Source of the DNA: an uncultured Candidatus Saccharibacteria bacterium
GTDB taxonomy: Bacteria; Patescibacteriota; Dojkabacteria; SC72
DNA length: 43,248 nt
Direction of reading: 5' to 3'
Assembly (NCBI GenBank): GCA_964557565.1
Contig: CAZLAH010000002.1
Coordinates: 17,682 to 60,929, forward strand
The notes below the pieces were generated by a model. The model worked only from the letters and a program-made list of their open reading frames with translations, had not been told where the DNA came from and ran no database searches. The position numbers were made by a program, and so were the translations under genes. Positions 22,921-43,248 of this stretch are shown here, piece by piece (the stretch's first letter is position 1; each line of letters begins with the position of its first letter).

Positions 22921-24057
22921 TTATTTTACAGCCTTCAATATTTCGTCTACTGCTTTTGCACCAATACCTTTTACAGAAAGTAATTCCTCTTTAGGAGTAC
23001 TCTTTATCTTTGAGATTGTATCTAAACCAGCATCTCCCAAAGCTTTTACAACTCTTGCAGAAAGACCTAATTCTTCAACACCTTTACTGTCTGCTTCTTG
23101 TTTTGCTTTCTCTGCAGCCTCTATCTCAGCATTAATATCTTTTTCCTTTTTTACAACTCTAACAACAGAGCTTGTACTCTCAGCTTGCACCTTTCCTTCT
23201 CTAAGTGATTTCATTCTTTCTCTTTCTTCATTTACCATTCTTGCTACTCTTTCCTTCTCATCTGCGAAATCTTTAGAAAGTTTACTTAACATTGCTTCAT
23301 GAGCATTTCTTAAAGATACAACAGAAAGAGATTTTGGTGACTTACCAACAACATCTCCCAAAATATTTGCAAAAAGAGAAATACTCTTCAAAGAGTCATC
23401 ATTAGCAGGAATTGGGAAATCTACTAAATCAGGATTACAGTTTGTATCTAGCAATGCTACTACAGGAATACCTGCAACTTTTGCTTCCTTTATTGTATTT
23501 TCTTCTACCTTAGTATCTACAACTATCATTACTTCAGGAAGTTTATCCATGAATTTGATACCTTGATATATTCTATTCAACCTCTCAACATCTCTTTCCA
23601 TTAACAAAACTTCTTTCTTAACCAATCCTTGTGCTCCTCTAGCCAACTGCTCTTCCATCTTTATTAATCCCTGAACACTCTTCTTTATAACTTCAAAATT
23701 AGTAAAAAGACCTCCAGGCCATCTTCTGTTAATGTAGAACATACCATTCTTTTCAGCAACAGACTGGACGATGGATGCTGCTTGTCCTTTAGTACCAACA
23801 ATCAAAACATTTCCTCTCTCTGAATATTTAACTAACTCAGACAATGCATTCTCAAGAAGCTCTCTTGTCTTTACCAAGTCTATTATATGAATACCATTTC
23901 TTTCCTCATATATATATTTCTTCATACGTGGATTCCAAGCACTTTTTTTATGCCCAAAGTGAGATCCTGCTTGAAGCAATTCTATTAATTCTGGAATTTG
24001 AAAACTTTTGTTTTTAGTCTCTGTTTTCTCTAAGACTTCTTTTTGTACTTCTTTCAT
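22921..24057 (-). CDS. rpsB: 30S ribosomal protein S2 with a C-terminal extension of about 130 aa ending in an HhH (RpoA alphaCTD-like) module
   Basis: S2 core (LLQAGSHFGHKKSAWNPRM..., IVGTKGQA, VVDTKVEENTIKEAKVAGIPVVALLDTNCNPD). This is followed by a charged coiled region and then VEELGLSARVVKALGDAGLDTISKIKSTPKEELLSVKGIGAKAVDEILKAV. Confidence 0.9.
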   Translation of the reverse strand: MKEVQKEVLEKTETKNKSFQIPELIELLQAGSHFGHKKSAWNPRMKKYIYEERNGIHIIDLVKTRELLENALSELVKYSERGNVLIVGTKGQAASIVQSVAEKNGMFYINRRWPGGLFTNFEVIKKSVQGLIKMEEQLARGAQGLVKKEVLLMERDVERLNRIYQGIKFMDKLPEVMIVVDTKVEENTIKEAKVAGIPVVALLDTNCNPDLVDFPIPANDDSLKSISLFANILGDVVGKSPKSLSVVSLRNAHEAMLSKLSKDFADEKERVARMVNEERERMKSLREGKVQAESTSSVVRVVKKEKDINAEIEAAEKAKQEADSKGVEELGLSARVVKALGDAGLDTISKIKSTPKEELLSVKGIGAKAVDEILKAVK

Positions 24058-31110: not shown

Positions 31111-32166
31111 TTAAACTAACTCTTCCCAAGACTTCTGAACTCTTTCCAACAGTTCTATATGATCAAGCATTAAAGATGTACCCCTAGCTACAGTAGACAT
31201 TGGATCTTCTACTATCTTAACAGGCATGTTTAATTCGGAAGAAAGATACGAATCTAATCCTAGAATTAATGCACCTCCACCGGTAAGACTCACCCCTGCT
31301 GTGAGAATATCTTTTAAAAGTTCTGGAGGGGTATCCTCAATTGTGTCTTTAATTGCCTCTGTAATTATCGAAATAGAACCCATCATAGCCTCCCTAATCT
31401 CTATACTGCTAATATCTACTGTTTTTGGCAAACCTGTTAAAAGATCTCGACCCTGCACCCCTATCTTTTTCTCTTTCTTCAAAGGCATCGCAGAACCCAT
31501 TGTAATTTTTACATCCTCTGCAGTCCTTTCTCCAATCAACATATTGTATTTGGCTCGAATGTAACTAATAATATCAAGATCCATCTCATCTCCTGCTACT
31601 TTTATTGTTCCATCGACTACAATATCTCCTAAAGAAAAAACCGCAATATCAGTAGTACCACCACCGATATCAATAATCATACTTCCAGAAGCATCTTCTA
31701 TTCTCAAACCAGCACCGATGGCTGCTGCCATAGCTTCTTCAACAATGAATACCTCTCTCGCACCAGCAGTTTTAGTAGCATCGATAACTGCTTGCCTCTC
31801 TACTTCCGTGACTGAAGATGGCACTCCAATGATTACTCTTGGTCTAGGAAGTTTAAATGCCTTACCGAAATAGCTGTGAGATTTATGTATGAAATGATGA
31901 ATCATAGCCTGAGTAGTATCAAAATCAGAAATTACACCATCTTTCAATGGTCTTACTGCAATTATATTTGCAGGTGTTCTTCCAATCATCTGTCTTGCCT
32001 CTTTACCTACAGCAAGAACACTCTTACTCCTTTTATCTATGGCAACAACAGAAGGCTCAGAAACAACAATACCATGATTCCTCATATATACCATAGTATT
32101 TGCAGTACCCAAGTCTATTCCAAGATCATATGTAACTAAACCCCAAAGGGGATCAAATATACCCAT
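31111..32166 (-). CDS. mreB: Rod shape-determining actin homologue MreB
   Basis: DLGIDLGTANTMVY, IIDIGGGTTDIAV, GGGALILGLD. Confidence 0.92.
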   Translation of the reverse strand: MGIFDPLWGLVTYDLGIDLGTANTMVYMRNHGIVVSEPSVVAIDKRSKSVLAVGKEARQMIGRTPANIIAVRPLKDGVISDFDTTQAMIHHFIHKSHSYFGKAFKLPRPRVIIGVPSSVTEVERQAVIDATKTAGAREVFIVEEAMAAAIGAGLRIEDASGSMIIDIGGGTTDIAVFSLGDIVVDGTIKVAGDEMDLDIISYIRAKYNMLIGERTAEDVKITMGSAMPLKKEKKIGVQGRDLLTGLPKTVDISSIEIREAMMGSISIITEAIKDTIEDTPPELLKDILTAGVSLTGGGALILGLDSYLSSELNMPVKIVEDPMSTVARGTSLMLDHIELLERVQKSWEELV

Positions 32167-33426: not shown

Positions 33427-33503
33427 GCCGAAGTAGCTCAGTTGGTCAGAGCAACTGTTTTGTAAACAGTAGGTCGAGAGTTCGAATCTCTCCTTCGGCT
33501 CCA
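33427..33503 (+). tRNA. tRNA-Thr (anticodon UGU), CCA encoded
   Basis: GCCGAAG/TA/GCTC-AGTTGGTCA-GAGC/A/ACTGT-TTTGTAA-ACAGT/AGGTC/GAGAG-TTCGAAT-CTCTC/CTTCGGC/T/CCA. Confidence 0.9.
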
Positions 33504-33508
33504 GTTAT

Positions 33509-33591
33509 GCAGAGGTGGCGGAGTGGTCAAACGCATTGGACTGTAAATCCAACTCCTTCGGGATACACAGGTTCAAATCCTGTCCTCTGCA
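33509..33591 (+). tRNA. tRNA-Tyr (anticodon GUA), long variable arm, no encoded CCA
   Basis: GCAGAGG...TTGGA-CTGTAAA-TCCAA, variable arm CTCCTTCGGGATAC, then ACAGG-TTCAAAT-CCTGT-CCTCTGC-A. Confidence 0.88.
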
Positions 33592-33621
33592 GATACATAT
33601 CTAAATTTACTCATAAATATC

Positions 33622-34341
33622 ATGAGTGATTCATTTGGTGTGGTAATTTTCATCATATCGGCCCTACTCTCTCTCTTAACAGCAGGAGGTGCAATATATT
33701 TCATCTTCTATCTAGTTAAGAATAAAGACAAAGGGATCAAGATAACAACAGATTCACTTCTAAAGGTATATCTCTATCTCATATCCTTCATTACATTACT
33801 TGTAGCAGTTGGAGGTGCTGCTGTTTTCCTGAATTCTGCATTCTCTTACAAATTCGGTGTACCCTTCTCATTCAATCTTGAAGAAACCAATGCATATTAC
33901 GACAAAGAAATTGTCGCTCCTGTTGAGAAAGATTATGCTCAACCAGAATGTTACACTGGAGAACCTACTGAAATAGAAGGTCAAAAAGTTTGTTTTAACC
34001 AAGAGGCTCAAAAACAAGGCTTTGTGAATGGTTTGACTATCGCAATTTCAATGATTGTCCTCTTCTTCATACATAAACTAGGTATCTTCCTCTCTGAGAA
34101 AAAGTCAGTTCTTTACTGGTTAAAGAAAACATATACATTTGTATCGTTAATCGTATTCAGTTTAGTTGGAGTTGTAACGATACCAATAGCTGCATACCAA
34201 TTATCAACATACGCATTTTCTAGACCTGAGGATATCACTTTGATTGACCCTCCAGGTTTAGCTCTAGCAACTGTAATATTTGTATTACCAATATGGATAT
34301 ACTTCTTGGTAAGTACAATACGGCTAAAGGAAGAAAAATAG
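33622..34341 (+). CDS. Polytopic membrane protein, unknown function
   Basis: 239 aa with about 5 TM helices and one Cys-containing extracytoplasmic loop (PECYTGEPTEIEGQKVCF). It is embedded between tRNA genes. Confidence 0.5.
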   Translation: MSDSFGVVIFIISALLSLLTAGGAIYFIFYLVKNKDKGIKITTDSLLKVYLYLISFITLLVAVGGAAVFLNSAFSYKFGVPFSFNLEETNAYYDKEIVAPVEKDYAQPECYTGEPTEIEGQKVCFNQEAQKQGFVNGLTIAISMIVLFFIHKLGIFLSEKKSVLYWLKKTYTFVSLIVFSLVGVVTIPIAAYQLSTYAFSRPEDITLIDPPGLALATVIFVLPIWIYFLVSTIRLKEEK

Positions 34342-34369
34342 ATAAGGATATAGTATAATCATTTTCGTC

Positions 34370-34446
34370 GCTGGATTAGCTCAGTTGGTTAGAGCACATT
34401 CATGGTAAGAATGAGGTCCTGAGTTCGACTCTCAGATCCAGCTCCA
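34370..34446 (+). tRNA. tRNA-Thr (anticodon GGU), CCA encoded
   Basis: GCTGGAT/TA/GCTC-AGTTGGTTA-GAGC/A/CATTC-ATGGTAA-GAATG/AGGTC/CTGAG-TTCGACT-CTCAG/ATCCAGC/T/CCA. A TATAAT box lies at 34353-34358. Confidence 0.88.
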
Positions 34447-34449
34447 TCG

Positions 34450-34471
34450 GAGGACAGACCTAGGTCTGACC
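34450..34471. repeat. Palindrome-containing 22-bp repeat, copy 1
   Basis: GAGGACAGACCTAGGTCTGACC. The core CAGACCTAGGTCTG is a perfect 14-bp palindrome. Confidence 0.8.
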
Positions 34472-34560
34472 CTATTGACCCCCAACCTTTATATCCTAAC
34501 CCTGCGAAATGCGACTAGGTTTAGATTAAAACCACATCTTCTCTGACCAACTCTATCGAA

Positions 34561-34582
34561 GAGGACAGGCCTAGGTCTGACC
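34561..34582. repeat. Palindrome-containing 22-bp repeat, copy 2
   Basis: GAGGACAGGCCTAGGTCTGACC, 21/22 identical to copy 1 and 111 bp downstream of it. It ends 12 nt before the -35 of the rpmG promoter. Confidence 0.8.
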
Positions 34583-34594
34583 TTCACAAAGCAT

Positions 34595-34623
34595 TTGACC
34601 TTCCCTACATTTTCCAATATAAT
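34595..34623 (+). promoter_or_regulatory. Near-consensus sigma70-type promoter of rpmG-tRNA-Trp-secE-nusG
   Basis: TTGACC (34595-34600), 17 nt spacer, TATAAT (34618-34623). Confidence 0.6.
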
Positions 34624-34667
34624 ACGAAGTATTTCCCAATATATACTAATTTTGATCCCTGAGGAAA

Positions 34668-34832
34668 ATGGCTAAAGTAAAAAGAGATATGATTGCTTTT
34701 AAGTGCGAAAAATGTGCAGAAAAGAACTACACAGCATTTAAAACAAAGAATATAACTGGAAAAATGGAGACAAAGAAGTACTGTTCTAAGTGCAAAGAGC
34801 ACACAGTACATAAGGAGACTAAAATAAAGTAA
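34668..34832 (+). CDS. rpmG: 50S ribosomal protein L33 (Cys4 zinc-ribbon form)
   Basis: Own translation (the ORF is below the track cutoff): MAKVKRDMIAFKCEKCAEKNYTAFKTKNITGKMETKKYCSKCKEHTVHKETKIK. It occupies the classic position before tRNA-Trp-secE-nusG. Confidence 0.88.
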   Translation: MAKVKRDMIAFKCEKCAEKNYTAFKTKNITGKMETKKYCSKCKEHTVHKETKIK

Positions 34833-34851
34833 ACCGCTCTTTACCTAATAC

Positions 34852-34926
34852 GGGCCCATAGTTTCAATGGTAAAATAGCGGTCTCCAAAACCGTGGTTCT
34901 CCGTTCGAATCGGAGTGGGCCTGCCA
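34852..34926 (+). tRNA. tRNA-Trp (anticodon CCA), CCA end encoded
   Basis: GGGCCCA...GCGGT-CTCCAAA-ACCGT...CTCCG-TTCGAAT-CGGAG-TGGGCCT-G-CCA. Confidence 0.88.
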
Positions 34927-36826: not shown

Positions 36827-36850
36827 TTCTTTCTACTTACAGTGATCATA

Positions 36851-36879
36851 AAAAAGACCCCTACCAAGGGGTCTTTTTG
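36851..36879 (+). terminator. Rho-independent terminator after rplA
   Basis: AAAAA-GACCCC-TACCAA-GGGGTC-TTTTT. The flanking A and T tracts mean it could act in both directions. Confidence 0.75.
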
Positions 36880-36886
36880 TTCTATA

Positions 36887-36915
36887 TTTACAAAAACGAA
36901 ACTATCCTATAGAAT
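36887..36915 (+). promoter_or_regulatory. Candidate promoter for small ORF 1
   Basis: TTTACA (36887-36892), 17 nt spacer, TAGAAT (36910-36915). Confidence 0.4.
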
Positions 36916-36956
36916 ACCACTTGTCTTTGCTCTTTAGGGAATGAAAGGAGAACATT

Positions 36957-37301
36957 GTGGCAAAAAGAAAGCCTCAAACTTTAATGTTTGGAGAAAAAAA
37001 ATACTCCTTGGTAACAGATTTTGGCGATGCAGTTCTAGCCAAACAAGAAGGATCCACCGATCTTTTCTTTATCATTCAGAAACTTGATGAAATTTTCAAG
37101 GTTCAAACAGATAATGATGAGATCAGAGTCCTTCTCCGAGGAGATAAGGTTTTTGTGAATGGAATCACAATTGGAATTAAAAAAAGTTGTGATTTGTATC
37201 GTGGACAGAAACACATCTTTGTAAAGAAGAGTAATCGTACAATGACAATTGTCGTAGATAAAGTTACACTTCTTCGTGTGTTCATTCCTGCTTTCGGATA
37301 A
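36957..37301 (+). CDS. Hypothetical small protein (114 aa), GTG start
   Basis: AAAGGAG (36944-36950) lies 6 nt before the GTG. No recognisable family. The N-terminal region resembles small ORF 2 (AVLAKQEGSTDLFF versus IILAKRQGKEFRF). Confidence 0.5.
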   Translation: MAKRKPQTLMFGEKKYSLVTDFGDAVLAKQEGSTDLFFIIQKLDEIFKVQTDNDEIRVLLRGDKVFVNGITIGIKKSCDLYRGQKHIFVKKSNRTMTIVVDKVTLLRVFIPAFG

Positions 37302-37338
37302 CAAAATCAAACCTACCCCCTAAAGAACAAAAGACAAA

Positions 37339-37411
37339 AGTGAGTCTAGTAGAGAATGCTGAAAAGCAACCTAGGAGCATTTCAGCTTCAATATCCCCTA
37401 CTAGACTCACT
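37339..37411 (+). repeat. Long hairpin element, copy 1
   Basis: 14-bp perfect arms AGTGAGTCTAGTAG (37339-37352) / CTACTAGACTCACT (37398-37411), enclosing a nested GCTGAAA...TTTCAGC hairpin. It is preceded by AAGACAAA. Confidence 0.8.
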
Positions 37412-37490
37412 GGCAACACCTTTACAAATCCCACTACAAAAGATAAAATCATCCCCTTGTTCTTAAAACTCAAAAAGGAGATCTAAAACA

Positions 37491-37655
37491 ATGAAATTGT
37501 ACGATGTTGCAGGAATCAAAAGATTCACATTCAAGAAGAATATTTTCATTTTTATTTCCAAAGATCCTGAAACTGGGATAATCCTCGCCAAAAGGCAAGG
37601 AAAAGAATTCCGATTTCAGGAAGAAAATAATGGGAAATTAACCCTCCTAAGATAG
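37491..37655 (+). CDS. Hypothetical small protein (54 aa)
   Basis: Own translation: MKLYDVAGIKRFTFKKNIFIFISKDPETGIILAKRQGKEFRFQEENNGKLTLLR. AAAGGAG (37474-37480) lies upstream. The ORF is below the track cutoff. Confidence 0.45.
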   Translation: MKLYDVAGIKRFTFKKNIFIFISKDPETGIILAKRQGKEFRFQEENNGKLTLLR

Positions 37656-37663
37656 AAGACAAG

Positions 37664-37728
37664 AGTGAGTCTAGTATACGAATGCCAAGAAGGCAGAAAA
37701 CCATAATTGGCTTCATACTAGACTCACT
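37664..37728 (+). repeat. Long hairpin element, copy 2
   Basis: Arms AGTGAGTCTAGTAT (37664-37677) / ATACTAGACTCACT (37715-37728), 13/14 identical to copy 1. It is also preceded by AAGACAAG. The interior differs in sequence but again forms a nested hairpin (GCCAA...TTGGC). Confidence 0.8.
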
Positions 37729-37741
37729 GATACACTCTTAA

Positions 37742-37770
37742 TTGAAAATCTTCGATATATCAGGTAAAAT
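37742..37770 (+). promoter_or_regulatory. Candidate promoter for small ORF 3
   Basis: TTGAAA (37742-37747), 17 nt spacer, TAAAAT (37765-37770). Confidence 0.45.
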
Positions 37771-37829
37771 AACTTGGCAACACAAGCTTGTTGCTCATTA
37801 TATCCTAAGTATTAGAAAAGGAGTCCCAT

Positions 37830-38042
37830 ATGGATTGCAAATGCTGTACATTATTGGAGTGCTCCCCAGAATGCCCTTCCTTCAAAAAAAAGGAAGACCT
37901 AAACAAACTGTTACTCAGATACTTCCAAAACAAAATCTTTTGGGAAGCTCTAGGGGAAATTCCAGAATCCGATCAGGATCTTTGCAATCTCTTTGAAAAA
38001 CTACTACAAAAGGAGGGCCTCGAGCCGATAAGTGTTGCATAG
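37830..38042 (+). CDS. Hypothetical Cys-rich small protein (70 aa)
   Basis: AAAGGAG (37817-37823) lies 6 nt before the ATG. The N-terminus MDCKCCTLLECSPECPSF has 5 Cys in 14 residues. The C-terminal two-thirds are predicted helical and acidic. Confidence 0.5.
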   Translation: MDCKCCTLLECSPECPSFKKKEDLNKLLLRYFQNKIFWEALGEIPESDQDLCNLFEKLLQKEGLEPISVA

Positions 38043-38073
38043 CTTTTCTTCAGCAACAGACTTGTGTTAAAAC

Positions 38074-38122
38074 AAGAGAGAATGGTAGATTACCATTAAA
38101 GTATCACATACCATTCTCTCTT
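38074..38122 (+). terminator. Long hairpin after small ORF 3; 3' arm abuts/overlaps the rplJ promoter -35
   Basis: AAGAGAGAATGGTA (38074-38087) / TACCATTCTCTCTT (38109-38122), 14-bp perfect arms with a nested ATGGTA-GAT-TACCAT. There is no U-tract. Confidence 0.45.
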
Positions 38123-38149
38123 GACCCTCCCCTCTCCTACTGATATAAT
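38121..38149 (+). promoter_or_regulatory. Near-consensus promoter of rplJ-rplL
   Basis: TTGACC (38121-38126), 17 nt spacer, TGA-TATAAT (an extended -10; TATAAT at 38144-38149). Confidence 0.65.
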
Positions 38150-38172
38150 CGCTCTAGTATTAACCTAAGAAA

Positions 38173-38195
38173 CAGGGTACAAAAATAAATCCCTG
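38173..38195 (+). promoter_or_regulatory. Hairpin in the rplJ leader (possible L10-leader autoregulatory element)
   Basis: CAGGG-UACAAAAAUAAAU-CCCUG in the 5' UTR of about 85 nt. rplJ has no obvious SD. Confidence 0.3.
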
Positions 38196-38237
38196 CGAGG
38201 TAAATATTAAATCCTAATTAATTAAAAATAAATAACC

Positions 38238-38795: not shown

Positions 38796-39200
38796 ATGGC
38801 AGAAGAGACAAAAAACTTACCAGAATTAACAGAGAACGGAACAAAAGTTCTTGAAATGGTAGAAAAGATGTCTGTGTTAGAGCTTGCTGACCTTGTAAAG
38901 GTTATGGAAGACAAGTTTGGAGTAAGTGCAGCAGCACCTGTTGCAGTAGCAGCAGTAGCAGCAGCTCCAGCAGAAGAAGTAGAAGAGAAATCTACATTCG
39001 ATCTTGTTCTTAAAGAAGCAGGAGCTAACAAGATTGGTGTAATCAAAGCTGTAAGAGAAGTTACAGAGTTGGGTCTTAAAGAGGCAAAAGATCTCGTAGA
39101 GGCAGCACCACAGACTGTTAAAGAAGGTGTAGCAAAAGCAGATGCTGAAGCTATGAAAGCAAAATTCGAAGAAGCAGGAGCAACAGTAGAATTAGTATAG
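38796..39200 (+). CDS. rplL: 50S ribosomal protein L7/L12
   Basis: Ala/Pro/Val hinge [20 protein letters not shown], then [24 protein letters not shown]... Confidence 0.92.
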
Positions 39201-39220
39201 TTGCTAATTTCGAATATTTA

Positions 39221-39250
39221 ACACCTAGCAGAAATGCTAGGTGTTTTTTT
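39221..39250 (+). terminator. Strong rho-independent terminator after rplL
   Basis: ACACCTAGCA-GAAA-TGCTAGGTGT (10-bp perfect stem, GNRA loop) followed by TTTTTTT. Confidence 0.85.
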
Positions 39251-39374
39251 AACTACAATCTTCACCTATAATGATATTAAATTCCGATTAATTACCTATA
39301 TAGTCATCGAGATAACGGTAAAAACGATGAGGTTTGACCTTAGTGTTTGCCTATGTATTGCCTTGTGCGATATA

Positions 39375-39404
39375 TCGACAAAGGGACTTCAAAAGAAGTA
39401 TAAT
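39375..39404 (+). promoter_or_regulatory. Candidate promoter of the amidoligase operon
   Basis: TCGACA (39375-39380), 18 nt spacer, TATAAT (39399-39404). Confidence 0.4.
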
Positions 39405-39454
39405 CTTCCTAATCTGCCAATACAAAAACTATCTAAGATATAACTGTAAAAACT

Positions 39455-40123
39455 ATGGAGTATACACCACTAACAGAGTGGATTTTGGAGCATGGGGTAT
39501 CTCAACAGACTCTAGATCTTTTTGTAACAATAACTATACTTGCAACAATAGTAAGTGTATCTAGATATATCTTTGGTTCTAAAACATACGGTATATATGC
39601 ACCAATAATATTGGCAATTTCATACTCATACACAGGATTTAGATATGGATTCGCTATAACCTTAATTGTAATTGTTACCACCCTACTCTCATATTCCATA
39701 CTTAAAAGAATCAGAATGCACTATATAACTAGAATAGCCATTAATTACTGCTTACTTTCCATTGCTCTCGTATTCTTCCTGCTTGTGATCAATCGATACG
39801 GCTTAGGGCTTGAGAATATGGCACAGATACCATCTCTAGCAGTTATATCAATAGCTGCTCTTTCTGATTTCTTCATCAAACAGTTTGTTCAAAAATCATT
39901 TAAATCCTCAATAGCCATACTGTTTAACACAATGGTCATAGCTTCAATAGGATGGTTTGTAATAACAAGAGATGTCATTACTGCATATACAATCAACAAT
40001 CTTTGGATTATACCCCTACTGATCATTGTAAATATTGTAATAGGACAGTTTAAGGGATTAAGAATAAAGGACCTCTTTAGGTTTAGTTCCATATTACAAG
40101 ACAAAGAAAATGTTTCAAAATAG
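39455..40123 (+). CDS. Seven-TM membrane protein of the type usually fused to an inactive transglutaminase (7TM_transglut-like), here stand-alone
   Basis: Seven hydrophobic helices can be counted by eye. The N-terminal motif VSRYIFGSKTYGIYAPIILAISY matches my recollection of that family's R-x-[IV]-x-G-x-x-T-[FY]-G-x-[FY]-x-P consensus. The ORF overlaps the next one by 14 nt. Confidence 0.55.
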   Translation: MEYTPLTEWILEHGVSQQTLDLFVTITILATIVSVSRYIFGSKTYGIYAPIILAISYSYTGFRYGFAITLIVIVTTLLSYSILKRIRMHYITRIAINYCLLSIALVFFLLVINRYGLGLENMAQIPSLAVISIAALSDFFIKQFVQKSFKSSIAILFNTMVIASIGWFVITRDVITAYTINNLWIIPLLIIVNIVIGQFKGLRIKDLFRFSSILQDKENVSK

Positions 40124-41564
40124 CAAGATAAAAGAGATACTAGGCTTAAACAGACGAAATCAGGAATATGTTCGTCCATATAACTCTCCTTCTGCTAAAA
40201 GGATTGCAGACAACAAGATCCTTACCAAACAAGTTCTTTCCAGGGAAGGTATTAATACTCCTTCTGTATACAAATTGATTAAAAATGCAAAACAACTGAA
40301 ATTCCTAGACTGGGATTCTTTACCAAAGAGTTTTGTCATAAAGCCAAATAAAGGTACTGGTGGTAATGGAATAATTGTGTTTTACGGAAAGAAGAAAGGT
40401 GAAAACTCTTGGATAAGACCAAATGGTACTACAATGTCTCAAAAGGATATAGCCCTACATATTGAGAATATTTTGGAAGGGAGATTCTCAATGGGAGATA
40501 GAAGTGACATTGCAATCATAGAAGAAAGAGTTAGAACAGACCCATTGCTTAAGCAATATTCCTTTAAGGGCGTACCTGATATTAGAATCATTTGTTTCAA
40601 TGGAGTACCAATAATGGCTATGACTAGGCTTCCAACAAGAAGATCAAATGGTACTGCAAATTTACACTCAGGAGCTATTTGTACTGGCTTAGATATTAGT
40701 ACAGGAATTACTACCTACTCAATGCAAATGAATACGAAGAGTCTCTTTAGTGATACCTATGAGGGTATTGAATATACTACAGATCTGAAGGAAAACAAGA
40801 AATTAAGTGGTATTCAGATACCAAATTGGGACGAAATCTTAACAATAGCTCTTAAGTGCCAGAAGGCTAGCAAGCTTGGATATATTGGTGTTGACATAGC
40901 CCTAGATGCCGAAAAAGGACCAGTTGTATTCGAATTGAACGCTAGACCAGGTTTAGGCATACAAGTTGCTAATCAAGCAGGATTAAGATGGAGGTTAGAG
41001 AAAGTAAAAGGCTTGGAAATAAAGAGCATAAAGCATGGTATTAGAGTAGCGAAGAATCTTTTCGGGGGAGAGATAGAAGAAAGCATAGAAGCAATAAGTG
41101 GAAGGAAAGTCGTAAGTATTACAGAGAAGATAGTTCTTTACAACAAGGAAGCTAATTTACAGAAAAGTATCAAAACCTCCGACAGAGAGGTTGCTACTGC
41201 CTTCATGGATACAGGAATTCAAAGCTCTAGAATATCTACAAGCCTCGCGAGTAGACTTGGATTCATTGGCACTATGAAATATTTCAATTCTTTGAATATT
41301 CCTAAACGATTTGAATCACTCAAGGATGCACAAGAATACATTGACCAAAACCCAAACTTTTCAGGCCAAGAGAGTGTAAAAAGGATTGCAAAAATAATCG
41401 AAGATGGGATAATAAAAATAAGACCTGTAATAGATGTAAGAATTAAAATTTCTGGTGAGATACAAGAGATAGAGATGGTCATAACTGAAGATTTAGAATA
41501 TCTTGTAGTTATTGGACGAAACAATCTTAAAGGATATTTAATTGATACCAGTAAAACATTCTAA
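40110..41564 (+). CDS. RimK-related 'alpha-L-glutamate ligase-like' ATP-grasp fused to a C-terminal retropepsin-like (PF05618-type) domain
   Basis: ATP-grasp part: ILGLNRRNQEYVRPYNSPSAKRIADNKILTK, FVIKPNKGTGGNGI, GVPDIRIICFNGVPIMAMTRLPTRRSNGTANLHSGAICTGLDISTG, LGYIGVDIALDAEKGPVVFELNARPGLGIQVANQAGL. C-terminal part: AFMDTGIQSSRIS (DTG at 41208-41216) and VVIGRNNLKGYLIDTSKTF. Confidence 0.75.
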   Translation: MFQNSKIKEILGLNRRNQEYVRPYNSPSAKRIADNKILTKQVLSREGINTPSVYKLIKNAKQLKFLDWDSLPKSFVIKPNKGTGGNGIIVFYGKKKGENSWIRPNGTTMSQKDIALHIENILEGRFSMGDRSDIAIIEERVRTDPLLKQYSFKGVPDIRIICFNGVPIMAMTRLPTRRSNGTANLHSGAICTGLDISTGITTYSMQMNTKSLFSDTYEGIEYTTDLKENKKLSGIQIPNWDEILTIALKCQKASKLGYIGVDIALDAEKGPVVFELNARPGLGIQVANQAGLRWRLEKVKGLEIKSIKHGIRVAKNLFGGEIEESIEAISGRKVVSITEKIVLYNKEANLQKSIKTSDREVATAFMDTGIQSSRISTSLASRLGFIGTMKYFNSLNIPKRFESLKDAQEYIDQNPNFSGQESVKRIAKIIEDGIIKIRPVIDVRIKISGEIQEIEMVITEDLEYLVVIGRNNLKGYLIDTSKTF

Positions 41565-42548
41565 ATGAAGACATATTCAGAATATTTAAAAGAAGCAGGG
41601 AATGTACACTTAGCATACTATGTAGAAGCTGCAGATGAGTTGGGGATCAAATATTCAATAGTAGTACCAAAGCTGATGGCTATGTTTGAATATAAAAAGA
41701 AGCATTGGTTCATCATAAATACAGTAACTCCCCTAACCTCTTCAACAAGTGCAACAATTTGCAAAAGAAAGCAGCTTACTAATCAAGTATTAAGCAAATT
41801 CGGATTACCAGTACCATATCAAGAAAATATCTCAAGTGCTGTTAATGCAATAAAGTTCTTCAATAAATACAAAGATATAGTCATTAAACCGACTCAACAG
41901 CTTGGTGGACATGGAGTATCAATACTCCCACAAAGCGAAGAACAGGTTATAAAAGCATATGAAATCGCTTTAGAGAGTTCTCATTCCAAAACCTCCAACA
42001 AAGTAATTGCAGAAGAATTTGTAACTGGAGAGAACTATCGCTTTCTAGTAGTTGGTGATAAGGTTATAGGTGTTGTAAGAAGAAAGGCAGCTCATGTTAT
42101 TGGCAATAGCAAGAACACTATAAGAGAACTAATACAGAAAGCAAATGAGGAGAAAGAGAAAGGCCTACTAATGCCAATCCTCATGGACAATGAGGTTATA
42201 CTGAAACTTCAAAGATCAAATTTAGACCTAGAATCTGTTCCCGATGAAGGAAAAGAGATAATATTAAGGTACAATTGCAATTTAACAACTGGTGGGACTA
42301 CAGAGGAATGTATTAAAGAGGTCCACGATTACTACAAACAGATAGCCATAAAAGCCATCGAAGCTGTAGGCTCAGAGTTTGGAGGTGTAGATATAATTGC
42401 AGAGAATATATCTAAGCCATCTAAAGTCGCAATAAACGAAATTAACTACAATCCAGGATTAAGATTGCATTACAAAGTAGACAAAGGAGAAGCAGTGAAG
42501 GTAGCAGTTCCAGTTATGGAATATATTAGGGATAAATATTTAAGTTAG
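41565..42548 (+). CDS. Stand-alone ATP-grasp ligase of the cyanophycin synthetase (CphA G-domain)/GshF type
   Basis: ICKRKQLTNQVLSKFGLPVP, IVIKPTQQLGGHGVSI, YRFLVVGDKVIGVVRRKAAHVIGNSKNTIRELI, NCNLTTGGTTEE, GGVDIIAENISKP, INEINYNPGLRLH. The ATG directly abuts the previous stop (TAAATG). Confidence 0.7.
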   Translation: MKTYSEYLKEAGNVHLAYYVEAADELGIKYSIVVPKLMAMFEYKKKHWFIINTVTPLTSSTSATICKRKQLTNQVLSKFGLPVPYQENISSAVNAIKFFNKYKDIVIKPTQQLGGHGVSILPQSEEQVIKAYEIALESSHSKTSNKVIAEEFVTGENYRFLVVGDKVIGVVRRKAAHVIGNSKNTIRELIQKANEEKEKGLLMPILMDNEVILKLQRSNLDLESVPDEGKEIILRYNCNLTTGGTTEECIKEVHDYYKQIAIKAIEAVGSEFGGVDIIAENISKPSKVAINEINYNPGLRLHYKVDKGEAVKVAVPVMEYIRDKYLS

Positions 42549-42559
42549 TAAAAACAACA

Positions 42560-43248
42560 ATGAGTAAGATTAAAATACTACAAGGCCTAAATCTAGATTC
42601 TTCAATCTCAACAATTACAATTGAGATACAACAAACAGAGAATGCAGAGAGACTACTGAACCTAGTTAAAAGCTACCATCCCATTTTCGCTAAAGAGTTT
42701 TTCTTCGAGAAAGGCACCCTAACTATAAGATCAAATATCACATTCTTTTGGAGAGAAGTTGCAAATACTCTCATAGATCTTTCAGAAAGCAAAATTGATT
42801 TTGAGAAAACAAAAGATATCGTTGTAAATAAAGTAATAAAAGAAAGACTCTCCTCGATGACAACTATCCCCCTACTCCATACAGCGCATGCCATGCAGCT
42901 AGAAACTACACCTACAATATTAATGAACGAAAGAGTTGAATACACAAAGTCTTACAACAGACATTACACAATTGGTACTGGTAAAAACTCTCAAACTATA
43001 TATTCCATCTCATCTGGTAAAGATTCCAAGATTGCAAAAGAAATACAGAAAGATAAATGGTCTTCCAATCTCATGATCGAAAGATTAGGTCTCCCAATTC
43101 CTAAATGGGAAGTCATAGATACAATCTCGGACATAGAACGTGTATGGGCCAGCTATCAGAAACCTGTAGTAATAAAACCTACTGGCCTAGTTGGAGGACA
43201 CGGAGTTGTAGTAGGAATAGATTCTTTAGAGGAAGCGAAGAAGGCTTT
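42560..43248 (+). CDS. Cyanophycin synthetase-like protein, N-terminal part (N domain plus start of ATP-grasp); continues beyond the window
   Basis: Own translation: MSKIKILQGLNLDSSISTITIEIQ...KDSKIAKEIQKDKWSSNLMIERLGLPIPKWEVI...YQKPVVIKPTGLVGGHGVVVGIDSLEEAKKA... The layout is CphA-like: an N domain of about 160 aa, then an ATP-grasp entry (DK-x-x-[ST], then a VIKP...G-x-G motif). Confidence 0.6.
   Translation, partial: MSKIKILQGLNLDSSISTITIEIQQTENAERLLNLVKSYHPIFAKEFFFEKGTLTIRSNITFFWREVANTLIDLSESKIDFEKTKDIVVNKVIKERLSSMTTIPLLHTAHAMQLETTPTILMNERVEYTKSYNRHYTIGTGKNSQTIYSISSGKDSKIAKEIQKDKWSSNLMIERLGLPIPKWEVIDTISDIERVWASYQKPVVIKPTGLVGGHGVVVGIDSLEEAKKA

Follow-up and report, generated by a model that had tools for sequence, protein, structure and literature searches.

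The triad of a seven-transmembrane (7TM) protein, an ATP-grasp ligase and a retropepsin-like protease was reportedly predicted by comparative genomics in the 2009 amidoligase survey of Iyer, Abhiman, Burroughs and Aravind, as is also reflected in Pfam descriptions. Here, we describe an expanded version of this triad at the end of a 43,248-nucleotide stretch of DNA (the window) from an uncultured bacterium of the Dojkabacteria, where an operon that we call g1 to g5 begins downstream of the ribosomal protein gene rplL. A first reading of the window, made from the sequence alone (the original prediction), had recognized the triad and regarded it as a comparative-genomics prediction only. This view has since been overtaken by work on RloABC of Pseudomonas aeruginosa, for which genetics, structures and in vitro cleavage of polyglutamate were published in 2025 (Lormand et al., mBio 2025, PMC12239564).

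The RloA proteases are retropepsins that are secreted and, in vitro, cleave runs of at least 8 glutamates. Their basic residues K46, R114 and R137 coordinate polyglutamate; R137 is needed for polyglutamate cleavage, and the substitution R137A abolishes RloA function. Loss of all three RloA proteases results in hypo-osmotic lethality, antibiotic sensitivity, and defects in biofilms and cell shape, all of which are suppressed by deletion of rloB or rloC (PMC12239564). This suppression fits a scheme in which the ligase makes material that has to be removed by the protease. In Pseudomonas, Rlo has a role in antibiotic tolerance and biofilms; rlo mutants show altered shape and sensitivity to beta-lactams, and the authors of the study, who found 96% of RloB matches in Proteobacteria, suggest a link to peptidoglycan (PMC12239564). 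The in vivo substrate of Rlo is unknown too (PMC12239564), and the triad is still without an assigned product, as the original prediction had stated.

Two other groups of peptide ligases are relevant for comparison. RimK and RimB are the cytoplasmic counterpart of Rlo: RimK makes poly-alpha-L-glutamate, RimB trims it, and activity has also been found for a hybrid of RimB and RimK (Little et al., J Biol Chem 2025, PMC11957791). The G domains of the cyanophycin enzymes CphA and CphA2 extend the C-terminus of a peptide via an acyl-phosphate (PMC10273328, PMC9427784).

Judged by sequence and predicted fold, the Dojkabacteria system is an expanded, cytoplasmic or membrane-bound relative of the proteobacterial Rim/Rlo systems. 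Its core is not new, as it consists of the known Rlo triad; specific to the lineage are two CphA-like ligases, a RimK-like protein, and an apparent loss of two polyglutamate-binding residues in the protease. By analogy with these relatives, we hold it to be somewhat probable that the genes encode a membrane-associated machinery in the cytoplasm for making and trimming a non-ribosomal acidic peptide, polymer or tail, likely with a role in the cell envelope or in cell shape.

The genes of the operon are tightly packed. g1 and g2 overlap by 14 nt, g2 and g3 meet in the junction TAAATG, g3 and g4 are separated by 11 nt, and g4 runs past the end of the window; a check of open reading frames (ORFs) and sequence reproduced the coordinates and junctions first given for these four ORFs. 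The full-length g4, g5 and the downstream genes were read from near-identical contigs in three public assemblies that encode the same proteins (L001 and L003 in Table 1). With this extension, the operon grew from the four genes first described to five co-directional genes and a convergent gene for a MATCAP-like carboxypeptidase. Specifically, g5 (319 amino acids) starts 2 nt after g4, and its end is overlapped by 4 nt by the convergent MATCAP/DUF1704 "QEGLA" gene, beyond which an mreB paralogue and trpS lie on the minus strand. The system comprises one membrane protein, four proteins of the ATP-grasp family, and two peptidases, which together take up about 6.6 kb, or roughly 1% of the genome. 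Domains were called by profile searches (Pfam and TIGR, NF and PRK models), BLASTP, sequence matches in PDB, AlphaFold2 (AF2) models, Foldseek, and hhalign. Profiles, fold, a conserved D-T-G motif and a CphA2-like model upheld the domain assignments originally made for all four proteins.

To describe conservation, one genome per species was scanned, which yielded 80 loci, all labelled as or resembling Dojkabacteria; counts given on fewer loci refer to subsets (56 evaluable loci for colinearity, 48 for the MATCAP and mreB2 genes, 58 for the spacing of rplL and g1, and 70 for the promoter). g1 to g5 were colinear in 55 of the 56 species loci, so that the check on neighbourhoods in relatives that had been proposed at the outset found the genes co-localised rather than scattered. 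Homologs of g2 were present as more than 100 cluster representatives, full length and 68–100% identical; the few that were named carried the labels Dojkabacteria, WS6, Microgenomates, Patescibacteria, or bacterium. Median identity to the window protein was 71% for g2, compared to 69% for L1 and 74% for L10 from the same genomes of about 0.7 Mb. By this measure, the g2 fusion equals ribosomal proteins L1 and L10 in conservation. The related near-complete contigs measured 0.67–0.76 Mb, in agreement with the reduced genome that had been surmised from the window. Candidate-phylum bacteria of this genome size, about 0.7 Mb, have lost most of their biosynthetic capacity. Every sampled Dojkabacteria species nevertheless keeps the 6.6 kb for this system, with its central enzyme at the conservation of a ribosomal protein. 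Such retention and strong conservation in tiny genomes point to an unnamed core function. A literature search found no paper connecting Dojkabacteria with g1 to g5 or the MATCAP-like genes.

In the central enzyme, g2, an RloC-type ATP-grasp ligase is joined to a retropepsin-like domain of the RimB/RloA type. Its ligase domain scored 235.9 bits against PF14397 (cut-off 31.4) and 294.5 bits against TIGR02291, slightly below the cut-off of 314.2. Over 93% of its length, it shares 44% identity with RloC of an annotated rloABC locus of Legionella, which carries the name alpha-L-glutamate ligase-like protein, and residues K78, E138/E139, D262, E275 and N277 are invariant. These profile matches, the identity to Legionella RloC, and the invariant ATP- and Mg-binding motifs together mark the domain as an RloC-type ligase. 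In addition, every g2, g3 and g4 sequence retains the Lys of the ATP-grasp, the Glu of the hinge, and the Mg ligands Asp and Glu-x-Asn.

The C-terminal domain of g2 gave only sub-threshold sequence matches in Pfam and phmmer searches (Asp_protease_2, 0.014; PF05618, 0.045), and nothing meaningful in PDB. Its AF2 model (predicted local distance difference test, pLDDT, 82.7) matched RloA best in Foldseek (9g58, 2.5e-6), together with RloA2 (9g59) and the DUF785 protein Lpg0085 (2pma), followed by Ddi1 and HIV protease. Within the g2 family, the D-T-G motif is conserved at D367 in 74/75 sequences, at T368 in 75/75, and at the Gly in 69/75. Relatives at 46% identity match the RimB-like family PF05618 (8e-9), and a profile of the domain aligned with Legionella RloA in hhalign (E=1.3e-4, probability 54%), with D-T-G and GR..L..IDxSK in register. 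We call the domain retropepsin-like because of its predicted fold, the PF05618 matches of its relatives, and this profile comparison. While it shares the fold and the D-T-G motif with RloA, it does not share secretion by a signal peptide: neither a signal peptide nor a transmembrane (TM) segment was found in g2, and none of g2 to g5 or the MATCAP homolog has a hydrophobic segment with the length of a TM helix.

The membrane partner, g1, carries six to seven hydrophobic segments and resembles the TM part of RloB. It matched only positions 310–508 of the 508 positions of the RloB model NF052267 (4.9e-10; 38.7 bits versus a cut-off of 900), as well as the TM part of Legionella RloB (BLASTP, E=1e-7), and a Pfam search gave no Transglut_core match. 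RloB is characterized by an inactive transglutaminase ectodomain and seven TM helices, of which g1 represents the TM module only. It was found in 73 related loci, with a median identity of 65%.

The likeness to RloABC therefore covers the ligase family (TIGR02291/PF14397), the 7TM module (PF14402), the fold of the protease, for which RloA and RloA2 are the top matches, and the tight linkage in an operon. There are clear differences as well. The Dojkabacteria 7TM protein lacks the pseudo-transglutaminase ectodomain, and the protease forms the C-terminal part of the ligase protein and is predicted to be cytoplasmic, whereas RloA is secreted. The equivalents of K46 and R137 appear to have been lost, three further ATP-grasp proteins and a MATCAP-like carboxypeptidase have been added, and the host is a monoderm-type bacterium of a candidate phylum. 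With RimK/RimB, the system shares the combination of an ATP-grasp enzyme with a cytoplasmic retropepsin-like endopeptidase, the natural fusion of the two, and the RimK/MptN/LysX family, to which g5 belongs. However, g2 is not a RimK orthologue, the order of its domains is ligase-protease instead of the protease-ligase of RimBK, there is a membrane partner, g5 has no Mg-binding Asn, and no ribosomal target is in evidence.

The substrate-binding residues of the protease may offer an indication of how the product has changed. In alignments of this divergent domain, the equivalent of R114 (R438) is invariant, while the K46 position is occupied by Phe or Tyr, and at R137 Dojkabacteria have a deletion or an acidic residue. 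The sample aligned with them includes six fusion proteins, viewed in their gene context or over their whole sequence, that are not accompanied by ligases like g3 to g5. Five of these keep the equivalents of both K46 and R137, while the sixth, P0283, has Ala at K46; P0283 and a second fusion, P0246, carry an unrelated second ATP-grasp instead. In the protease alignment guided by intermediates, the gain of three ligases thus coincides with an apparent loss of polyglutamate-binding residues in Dojkabacteria, which fits a product that would no longer be plain polyglutamate.

Two further features of the fusion were observed. The linker between its domains, FGGE(I/V)EESIE..SGRK (FGGEIEESIE in the window), is almost invariant across the phylum and predicted to be disordered (pLDDT 45–51). 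This acidic linker might act as a pseudo-substrate or as a site of self-processing. The 5 to 8 or more contiguous glutamates that RimB and RloA require are not present in it. In P0241, a distant fusion represented by a 501-residue protein, Asn replaces the catalytic Asp (ARINTG), and the protease domain may be inactive in some lineages.

Relatives in other uncultured lineages tie the parts of the system together. When representatives clustered at 50% identity were searched exhaustively, full-length fusions of ligase and protease turned up at identities as low as 35%, along with a range of further architectures: a single protein of 916 amino acids with ligase, RimB-like and MATCAP domains; a large group of ligase-MATCAP proteins of about 800 amino acids; ligase and RimB-like domains followed by a second ATP-grasp or by YdjC; 7TM-ligase proteins; and transglutaminase-7TM-ligase proteins. 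These fusions connect the ligase, protease, 7TM and MATCAP parts with each other. In all four contigs examined (L086, L087/L088, L089 and L090), the gene for the fused ligase lies directly 3' of the 7TM gene. Three of the four have the cluster next to ruvC or a short way 3' of it, two have it next to a gene for a class A penicillin-binding protein (PBP), and none has it next to ribosomal genes. The extra ATP-grasp proteins of these lineages showed no similarity to g3, g4 or g5 by BLASTP. For this reason, we take the core to be the 7TM protein, the RloC-type ligase and one or both peptidases, with accessory ligases that depend on the lineage.

In Dojkabacteria, two of these accessory ligases belong to the CphA clade. 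g3 is a stand-alone ATP-grasp protein related to the CphA G domain, GshF and Ngg; its PRK14016 match covers CphA positions 166–470, and it matched CphA1 in PDB (7wac, 2.5e-37). The equivalents of TeCphA1 K220, K261, R309, R323, N394, G456 and R458 are invariant in 74/74 g3 sequences, and S396 is replaced by Thr or kept as Ser. g3 thereby retains all TeCphA1 residues for catalysis and for gripping the incoming aspartate, including the aspartate set R323, N394, S396 and R458. At the position of E215, which binds the Arg of cyanophycin in TeCphA1, 70/74 sequences have Thr.

For g4, the CphA2-type architecture extends over the whole protein. It matched CphA2 in PDB by sequence (8fxh, 5e-41; 7ta5), and a model of a 93%-identical orthologue (AF2, pLDDT 90.1) had CphA2 7ta5 as its top Foldseek match over its whole length (3.3e-39; TMq 0.72 and TMt 0.70; about 605 columns). 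Like CphA2 (7ta5, 8fxh), g4 consists of an N domain, a G domain and an inactive, truncated M domain, and has a Tyr in place of R458 (Y411, invariant in 64/64). The M remnant of about 120 residues has no GKT P-loop and is variable in its positions. The catalytic Arg pair is retained, and Ser replaces the large-loop Asn, N394. The acidic Arg-binding position (D212 in StCphA2) is variable, with Lys in 21, Glu in 18, Asn in 10 and Thr in 8 of 64 sequences. Relative to CphA, identity is around 22%, scores reach about a quarter of the cut-offs (TIGR02068: 221.5 bits for g3 and 229.1 for g4, versus 850 for a CphA1 assignment), neither the Arg-binder nor the P-loop His is conserved, no M domain is present that could add Arg, and g3 has neither an N nor an M domain. 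From these features, g3 and g4 are predicted to be peptide-carboxylate ligases of the CphA clade, and neither qualifies as a cyanophycin synthetase. The initial description as "cyanophycin-synthetase-like" is thus appropriate for the fold, and not for the features that define cyanophycin synthesis, namely an active M domain, the Arg-binder and the score cut-off.

It follows that production of cyanophycin or a close analogue by g3 and g4 as a nitrogen reserve, already weakened by these comparisons, is very unlikely. Several orthologues are labelled cyanophycin synthetase by NCBI or JGI, and such a role would account for the fold and architecture of g4 and for the aspartate-binding residues in g3. 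It would leave unexplained the low TIGR02068 scores, the missing M domain and P-loop for the addition of arginine, and the replaced Arg-binder and large-loop Asn; moreover, the neighbourhood contains no cyanophycinase, and the obligate partners are of the Rlo type.

The same two ligases bear on a second alternative, a small soluble peptide. GshAB matches to g3 (1e-52) and g4 (9e-42) and Ngg matches (1e-38 and 9e-29, respectively) are almost level with those to CphA, and Rlo is tied to osmotic stress tolerance in Pseudomonas (PMC12239564). The product might accordingly be a di-, tri- or tetrapeptide that serves as an osmolyte or thiol analogue, similar to N-acetylglutaminylglutamine amide or glutathione, with the 7TM protein as its transporter. 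We consider this quite unlikely, given that no GNAT, amidotransferase or glutamate-cysteine ligase partner is present, that g4 has a polymer-handling N domain in a CphA2 architecture, and that two peptidases and several ligases are better suited to a longer product of controlled length. An acidic peptide or polymer that is extended and trimmed agrees better with this set of enzymes.

The last ATP-grasp protein, g5, is a divergent member of the RimK/MptN/LysX family. It keeps K161, D274 and E286, but the Mg-binding Asn is replaced by Ser or Gly in 60/60 sequences, and there is no Gly-rich loop. Together with the RimB-like protease and the location of the operon, it raises the question of ribosome modification, in which the ligases would extend and the protease would trim the C-terminal tail of a ribosomal protein. 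The operon lies directly downstream of rplK-rplA-rplJ-rplL (rplL ends at 39200), and g1 follows rplL within 400 nt in 43/58 loci. Further points in favour are the membership of g2, g5 and the retropepsin in the RimK/RimB superfamilies, the cytoplasmic location that the protease shares with RimB, and the precedent of a RimB-RimK fusion with activity (PMC11957791).

The transcription signals at this junction indicate that the two groups of genes are separate. A hairpin and T-run follow rplL in 42/43 related loci. The promoter-like sequence TCGACA-N16-19-TATAAT is found 5' of g1 in 43/70 related loci, and GTATAAT in 61/70; promoter-like matches as a class are not enriched (9 observed versus 16.7 expected). 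This motif stays with g1 even in loci where g1 is not adjacent to rplL. The site scan and the conservation in relatives thus agree with both the rplL terminator and the TCGACA-18-TATAAT promoter of the original prediction, and given the conservation of both elements, the locus is predicted to be transcribed as its own unit behind the rplL terminator.

The break in synteny, where rplL is not followed by rpoB as had been pointed out from the window, extends to the relatives. No rpoB-sized ORF was found in the 39 kb of the window upstream of the operon, and none of the 80 related loci (1.14 Mb) has a plus-strand ORF of at least 900 amino acids after rplL, from which we conclude that the break is a trait of the lineage rather than of a single genome. 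In 15/58 loci, 0.6–8 kb is inserted between rplL and g1. With a terminator and a promoter separating the units, insertions in these 15 loci, and other contexts elsewhere, the position after rplL is probably not functionally meaningful.

A ribosomal target, for which we see as little probability as for cyanophycin, is further weakened by the proteins themselves. g2 is of the RloC type, with 294 bits for TIGR02291, while scores for the RimK equivalog PRK10446 were 22.1 bits for g2, 29.3 for g3 and 20.2 for g5 (cut-off 331), so that none is assigned as RimK. The gene for S6, the RimK target with its Glu-Glu C-terminus, does not lie in the window. A dedicated 7TM partner, which is fused to the ligase in some lineages, is ill-suited to a ribosomal target, and the clusters of other lineages are found near ruvC or a PBP gene. 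L12 ends in ...VELV/A, neither L12 nor the cluster proteins have a Glu-rich C-terminus, and none of the ORFs in the window has an acidic C-terminal tail.

The convergent gene after g5 encodes a predicted Zn carboxypeptidase, a homolog of MATCAP, the human tubulin tyrosine carboxypeptidase (KIAA0895L), and of the bacterial DUF1704 "QEGLA" family (TIGR02421). It matched human MATCAP (7z5g) at 3.2e-16, and its HExxxH and EEGLA motifs are invariant in 55 sequences, as is typical of a gluzincin. These motifs and the pairing with ATP-grasp ligases, as for tubulin, make up the likeness to these families; the homolog differs from the human enzyme in being bacterial, and its TIGR02421 score is below the cut-off (97 bits versus 339). 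The gene is convergent directly after g5 in 48/48 loci, usually 3–10 nt away or overlapping.

In the same 48/48 loci, the MATCAP gene adjoins a gene for an MreB paralogue, MreB2. This protein shares 45% identity with the canonical MreB, which is encoded by the mreBC-PBP2 operon of the window and lacks the conserved tail of MreB2, ...GERxFSFNR(D/E)(F/Y)RR. That an actin-like protein occurs together with ATP-grasp ligases and a homolog of a tubulin carboxypeptidase is suggestive, though it may reflect plain inheritance of an operon. By analogy with the tubulin tyrosination cycle, the ligases and MATCAP could write and erase a C-terminal "code" on MreB2, an idea to which we assign at most an extremely small chance.

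The neighbourhood of MreB2 also bears on cell-wall chemistry, in which the ligases would add amino acids to peptidoglycan precursors or another lipid-linked envelope polymer, and the peptidases would edit the result. Precedent exists in ATP-grasp D-aspartate ligases that act on the stem peptide or cross-bridge. Apart from the MreB paralogue next to MATCAP, the window has the MreB-MreC-PBP2 operon at a distance of about 8 kb upstream, the related cluster of two other lineages adjoins a class A PBP gene, Pfam labels PF14397 "sugar-transfer associated", and the Pseudomonas rlo mutants have altered shape and beta-lactam sensitivity, with a link to peptidoglycan suggested by the authors (PMC12239564). 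Nevertheless, we regard such chemistry as unlikely. Mur-ligase, transferase and flippase domains are absent from the cluster, g4 has an M remnant with no P-loop, and the closest characterized relatives of each ligase extend peptide alpha-carboxylates rather than UDP-MurNAc or lipid II. In genomes as small as 0.7 Mb, the proximity of housekeeping genes carries little weight.

The synthesis and trimming of an acidic non-ribosomal peptide, polymer or tail at the membrane thus continues to be the best explanation of the locus. The membrane-coupled synthesis and processing of a non-ribosomal poly-amino acid or tag that was proposed at first survives in this form, as a proposal based on homology. 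These loci show directly which genes and domains are present, that catalytic motifs are intact, and that the genes are conserved and linked; from this, we infer the following scheme of substrate, product, order of steps and role. The ligases would activate C-terminal carboxylates as acyl-phosphates and then add acidic residues or short peptide units stepwise. In this way, an acidic oligo- or polypeptide would arise without the ribosome, as a free product or attached to a target as its tail. Within this scheme, g3 could carry out an aspartate-adding step, and g4 could extend the peptide chain by a peptide-sized block. The retropepsin, as an endopeptidase, and the MATCAP homolog, as a carboxypeptidase, would trim the product or limit its length, while the 7TM protein would anchor the machinery at the membrane or pass the product across it. 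The physiological role would probably lie in homeostasis of the envelope or cell shape, as for Rlo in Pseudomonas.

Several points weigh against this scheme. Its chemistry is derived by homology throughout for this phylum, and the product of Pseudomonas Rlo is itself unknown (PMC12239564). The g2 protease is cytoplasmic whereas RloA is secreted, so that the topology differs, and the export role of the 7TM protein is a guess. The loss of K46 and R137 rests on alignment of a divergent domain, with an hhalign probability of 54%, though the alignment with intermediates agrees. The P-loop His of CphA1 (H267) is not conserved in g3 or g4, and g5 may be inactive, perhaps as a non-catalytic partner, in view of its altered Mg site and missing Gly-rich loop. 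Neither a target with an acidic C-terminus nor a precursor-peptide gene was found in the window or the cluster.

A bolder version would have the RloC-type, CphA1-G-type and CphA2-type ligases, in an assembly anchored at the membrane, jointly build an unprecedented hetero-poly(amino acid) or branched acidic peptide, neither poly-alpha-glutamate nor cyanophycin; we consider this possible, if doubtful. Equally tentative is the extension of this idea in which the retropepsin and MATCAP would set the length, and the product would be a core component of the envelope or cell shape.

Whichever product is made, the locus provides a second, contrasting view of Rlo, with the same ligase, 7TM module and protease working without a periplasm, and the fusions of these parts to each other and to a MATCAP-type carboxypeptidase in other lineages reveal which of them cooperate. 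With their small size and solubility, g2 to g5 and the carboxypeptidase should suit in vitro reconstitution, making the question of the product directly testable. A new polymer made by ATP-grasp enzymes, if this is what the system produces, would be of interest to work on biopolymers.

Table 1. Features of the operon and its surroundings; positions refer to the window, or to contigs L001 and L003 where indicated.
Feature	Position	Strand	Basis or remark
Intrinsic terminator 3' of rplL	39220–39252	+	11-bp stem (5 G-C pairs, 39220–39245), GAAA loop, T-run
Sigma-70-type promoter-like site TCGACA-18-TATAAT for the operon	39375–39404	+	11/12 matches, best in region
Leader motif AATCTGCC	39411–39418	+	Near start of ~50-nt 5' leader (39405–39454)
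g1, 222-aa polytopic membrane protein, RloB 7TM module	39455–40123	+	PF14402 7TM_transglut, 3.7e-14
g2, 484-aa fusion of RloC-type ATP-grasp ligase and RimB/RloA-type retropepsin-like domain	40110–41564	+	Profiles, fold
g2 ligase domain	Residues 6–303, nt 40125–41018	+	PF14397 6.7e-70, TIGR02291 7.8e-88
g2 linker FGGEIEESIE	Residues 318–327, nt 41061–41090	+	
g2 protease domain	~Residues 330–484, nt 41097–41561; D-T-G 41208–41216	+	Predicted fold, D-T-G
g3, 327-aa stand-alone ATP-grasp, CphA G-domain/GshF/Ngg clade	41565–42548	+	PRK14016 2.3e-67
g4, CphA2-like ligase (N, G, truncated M remnant)	42560–43248 (first 229 of 562 aa); full gene L001 2980–4668	+	PRK14016 4.4e-69
MATCAP/DUF1704 metallocarboxypeptidase homolog, 386 aa, outside window	L003 5627–6787	-	PF08014 2e-23, 83.4 bits versus cut-off 27
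MreB2 paralogue, 339 aa, ~3.5 kb beyond window end	L003 6811–7830	-	Adjoins MATCAP-like gene
Canonical MreB of mreBC-PBP2 operon	31111–32166	-	
rplA-rplJ stretch	36827–38237		
rpsB, S2 with C-terminal extension	22921–24057	-	PF03118 7.6e-12, residues 315–376
tRNA cluster (Thr-Tyr ... Thr ... Trp)	33427–34926		
239-aa ORF between tRNA-Tyr and second tRNA-Thr	33622–34341		

A role in anti-phage defence or conflict was considered as well, and rejected: none of the six proteins matched PADLOC-DB, and the core genes are at the conservation of ribosomal proteins.

The 5' leader of the operon contains a short conserved motif, which reads AATCTGCC in the window. AATCTGC(C) occurs within 200 nt 5' of g1 in 32/70 loci, always just downstream of the -10 box and often followed by AAATT(A/G)TCA, and a second subgroup carries ATATTCTAATTTTT in its place. 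From its position, the motif could be an operator or an initial transcribed element. A search of the whole window against Rfam at gathering thresholds returned tRNAs only, with no match in the operon leader or the spacer between rplA and rplJ. This 1.4-kb spacer has no convincing gene, and its four small ORFs have no Pfam match. As its size varies from 126 nt to 4.4 kb among related loci, it looks like a variable insertion site within the L11-L1-L10-L12 cluster.

The rest of the window (G+C about 35%) is occupied by housekeeping genes, including mfd, topA, dnaX, cysS, rpsB, the PBP2-mreC-mreB block, a tRNA cluster, and nusG-rplK-rplA-rplJ-rplL. The C-terminal extension of the rpsB product, S2, matches the C-terminal domain of RNA polymerase alpha, which is an unusual fusion. 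The tRNA cluster is located 5' of nusG-rplK, and the ORF between its tRNA-Tyr and second tRNA-Thr genes has no Pfam match; in Escherichia coli, tufB lies downstream of the thrU-tyrU-glyT-thrT cluster.

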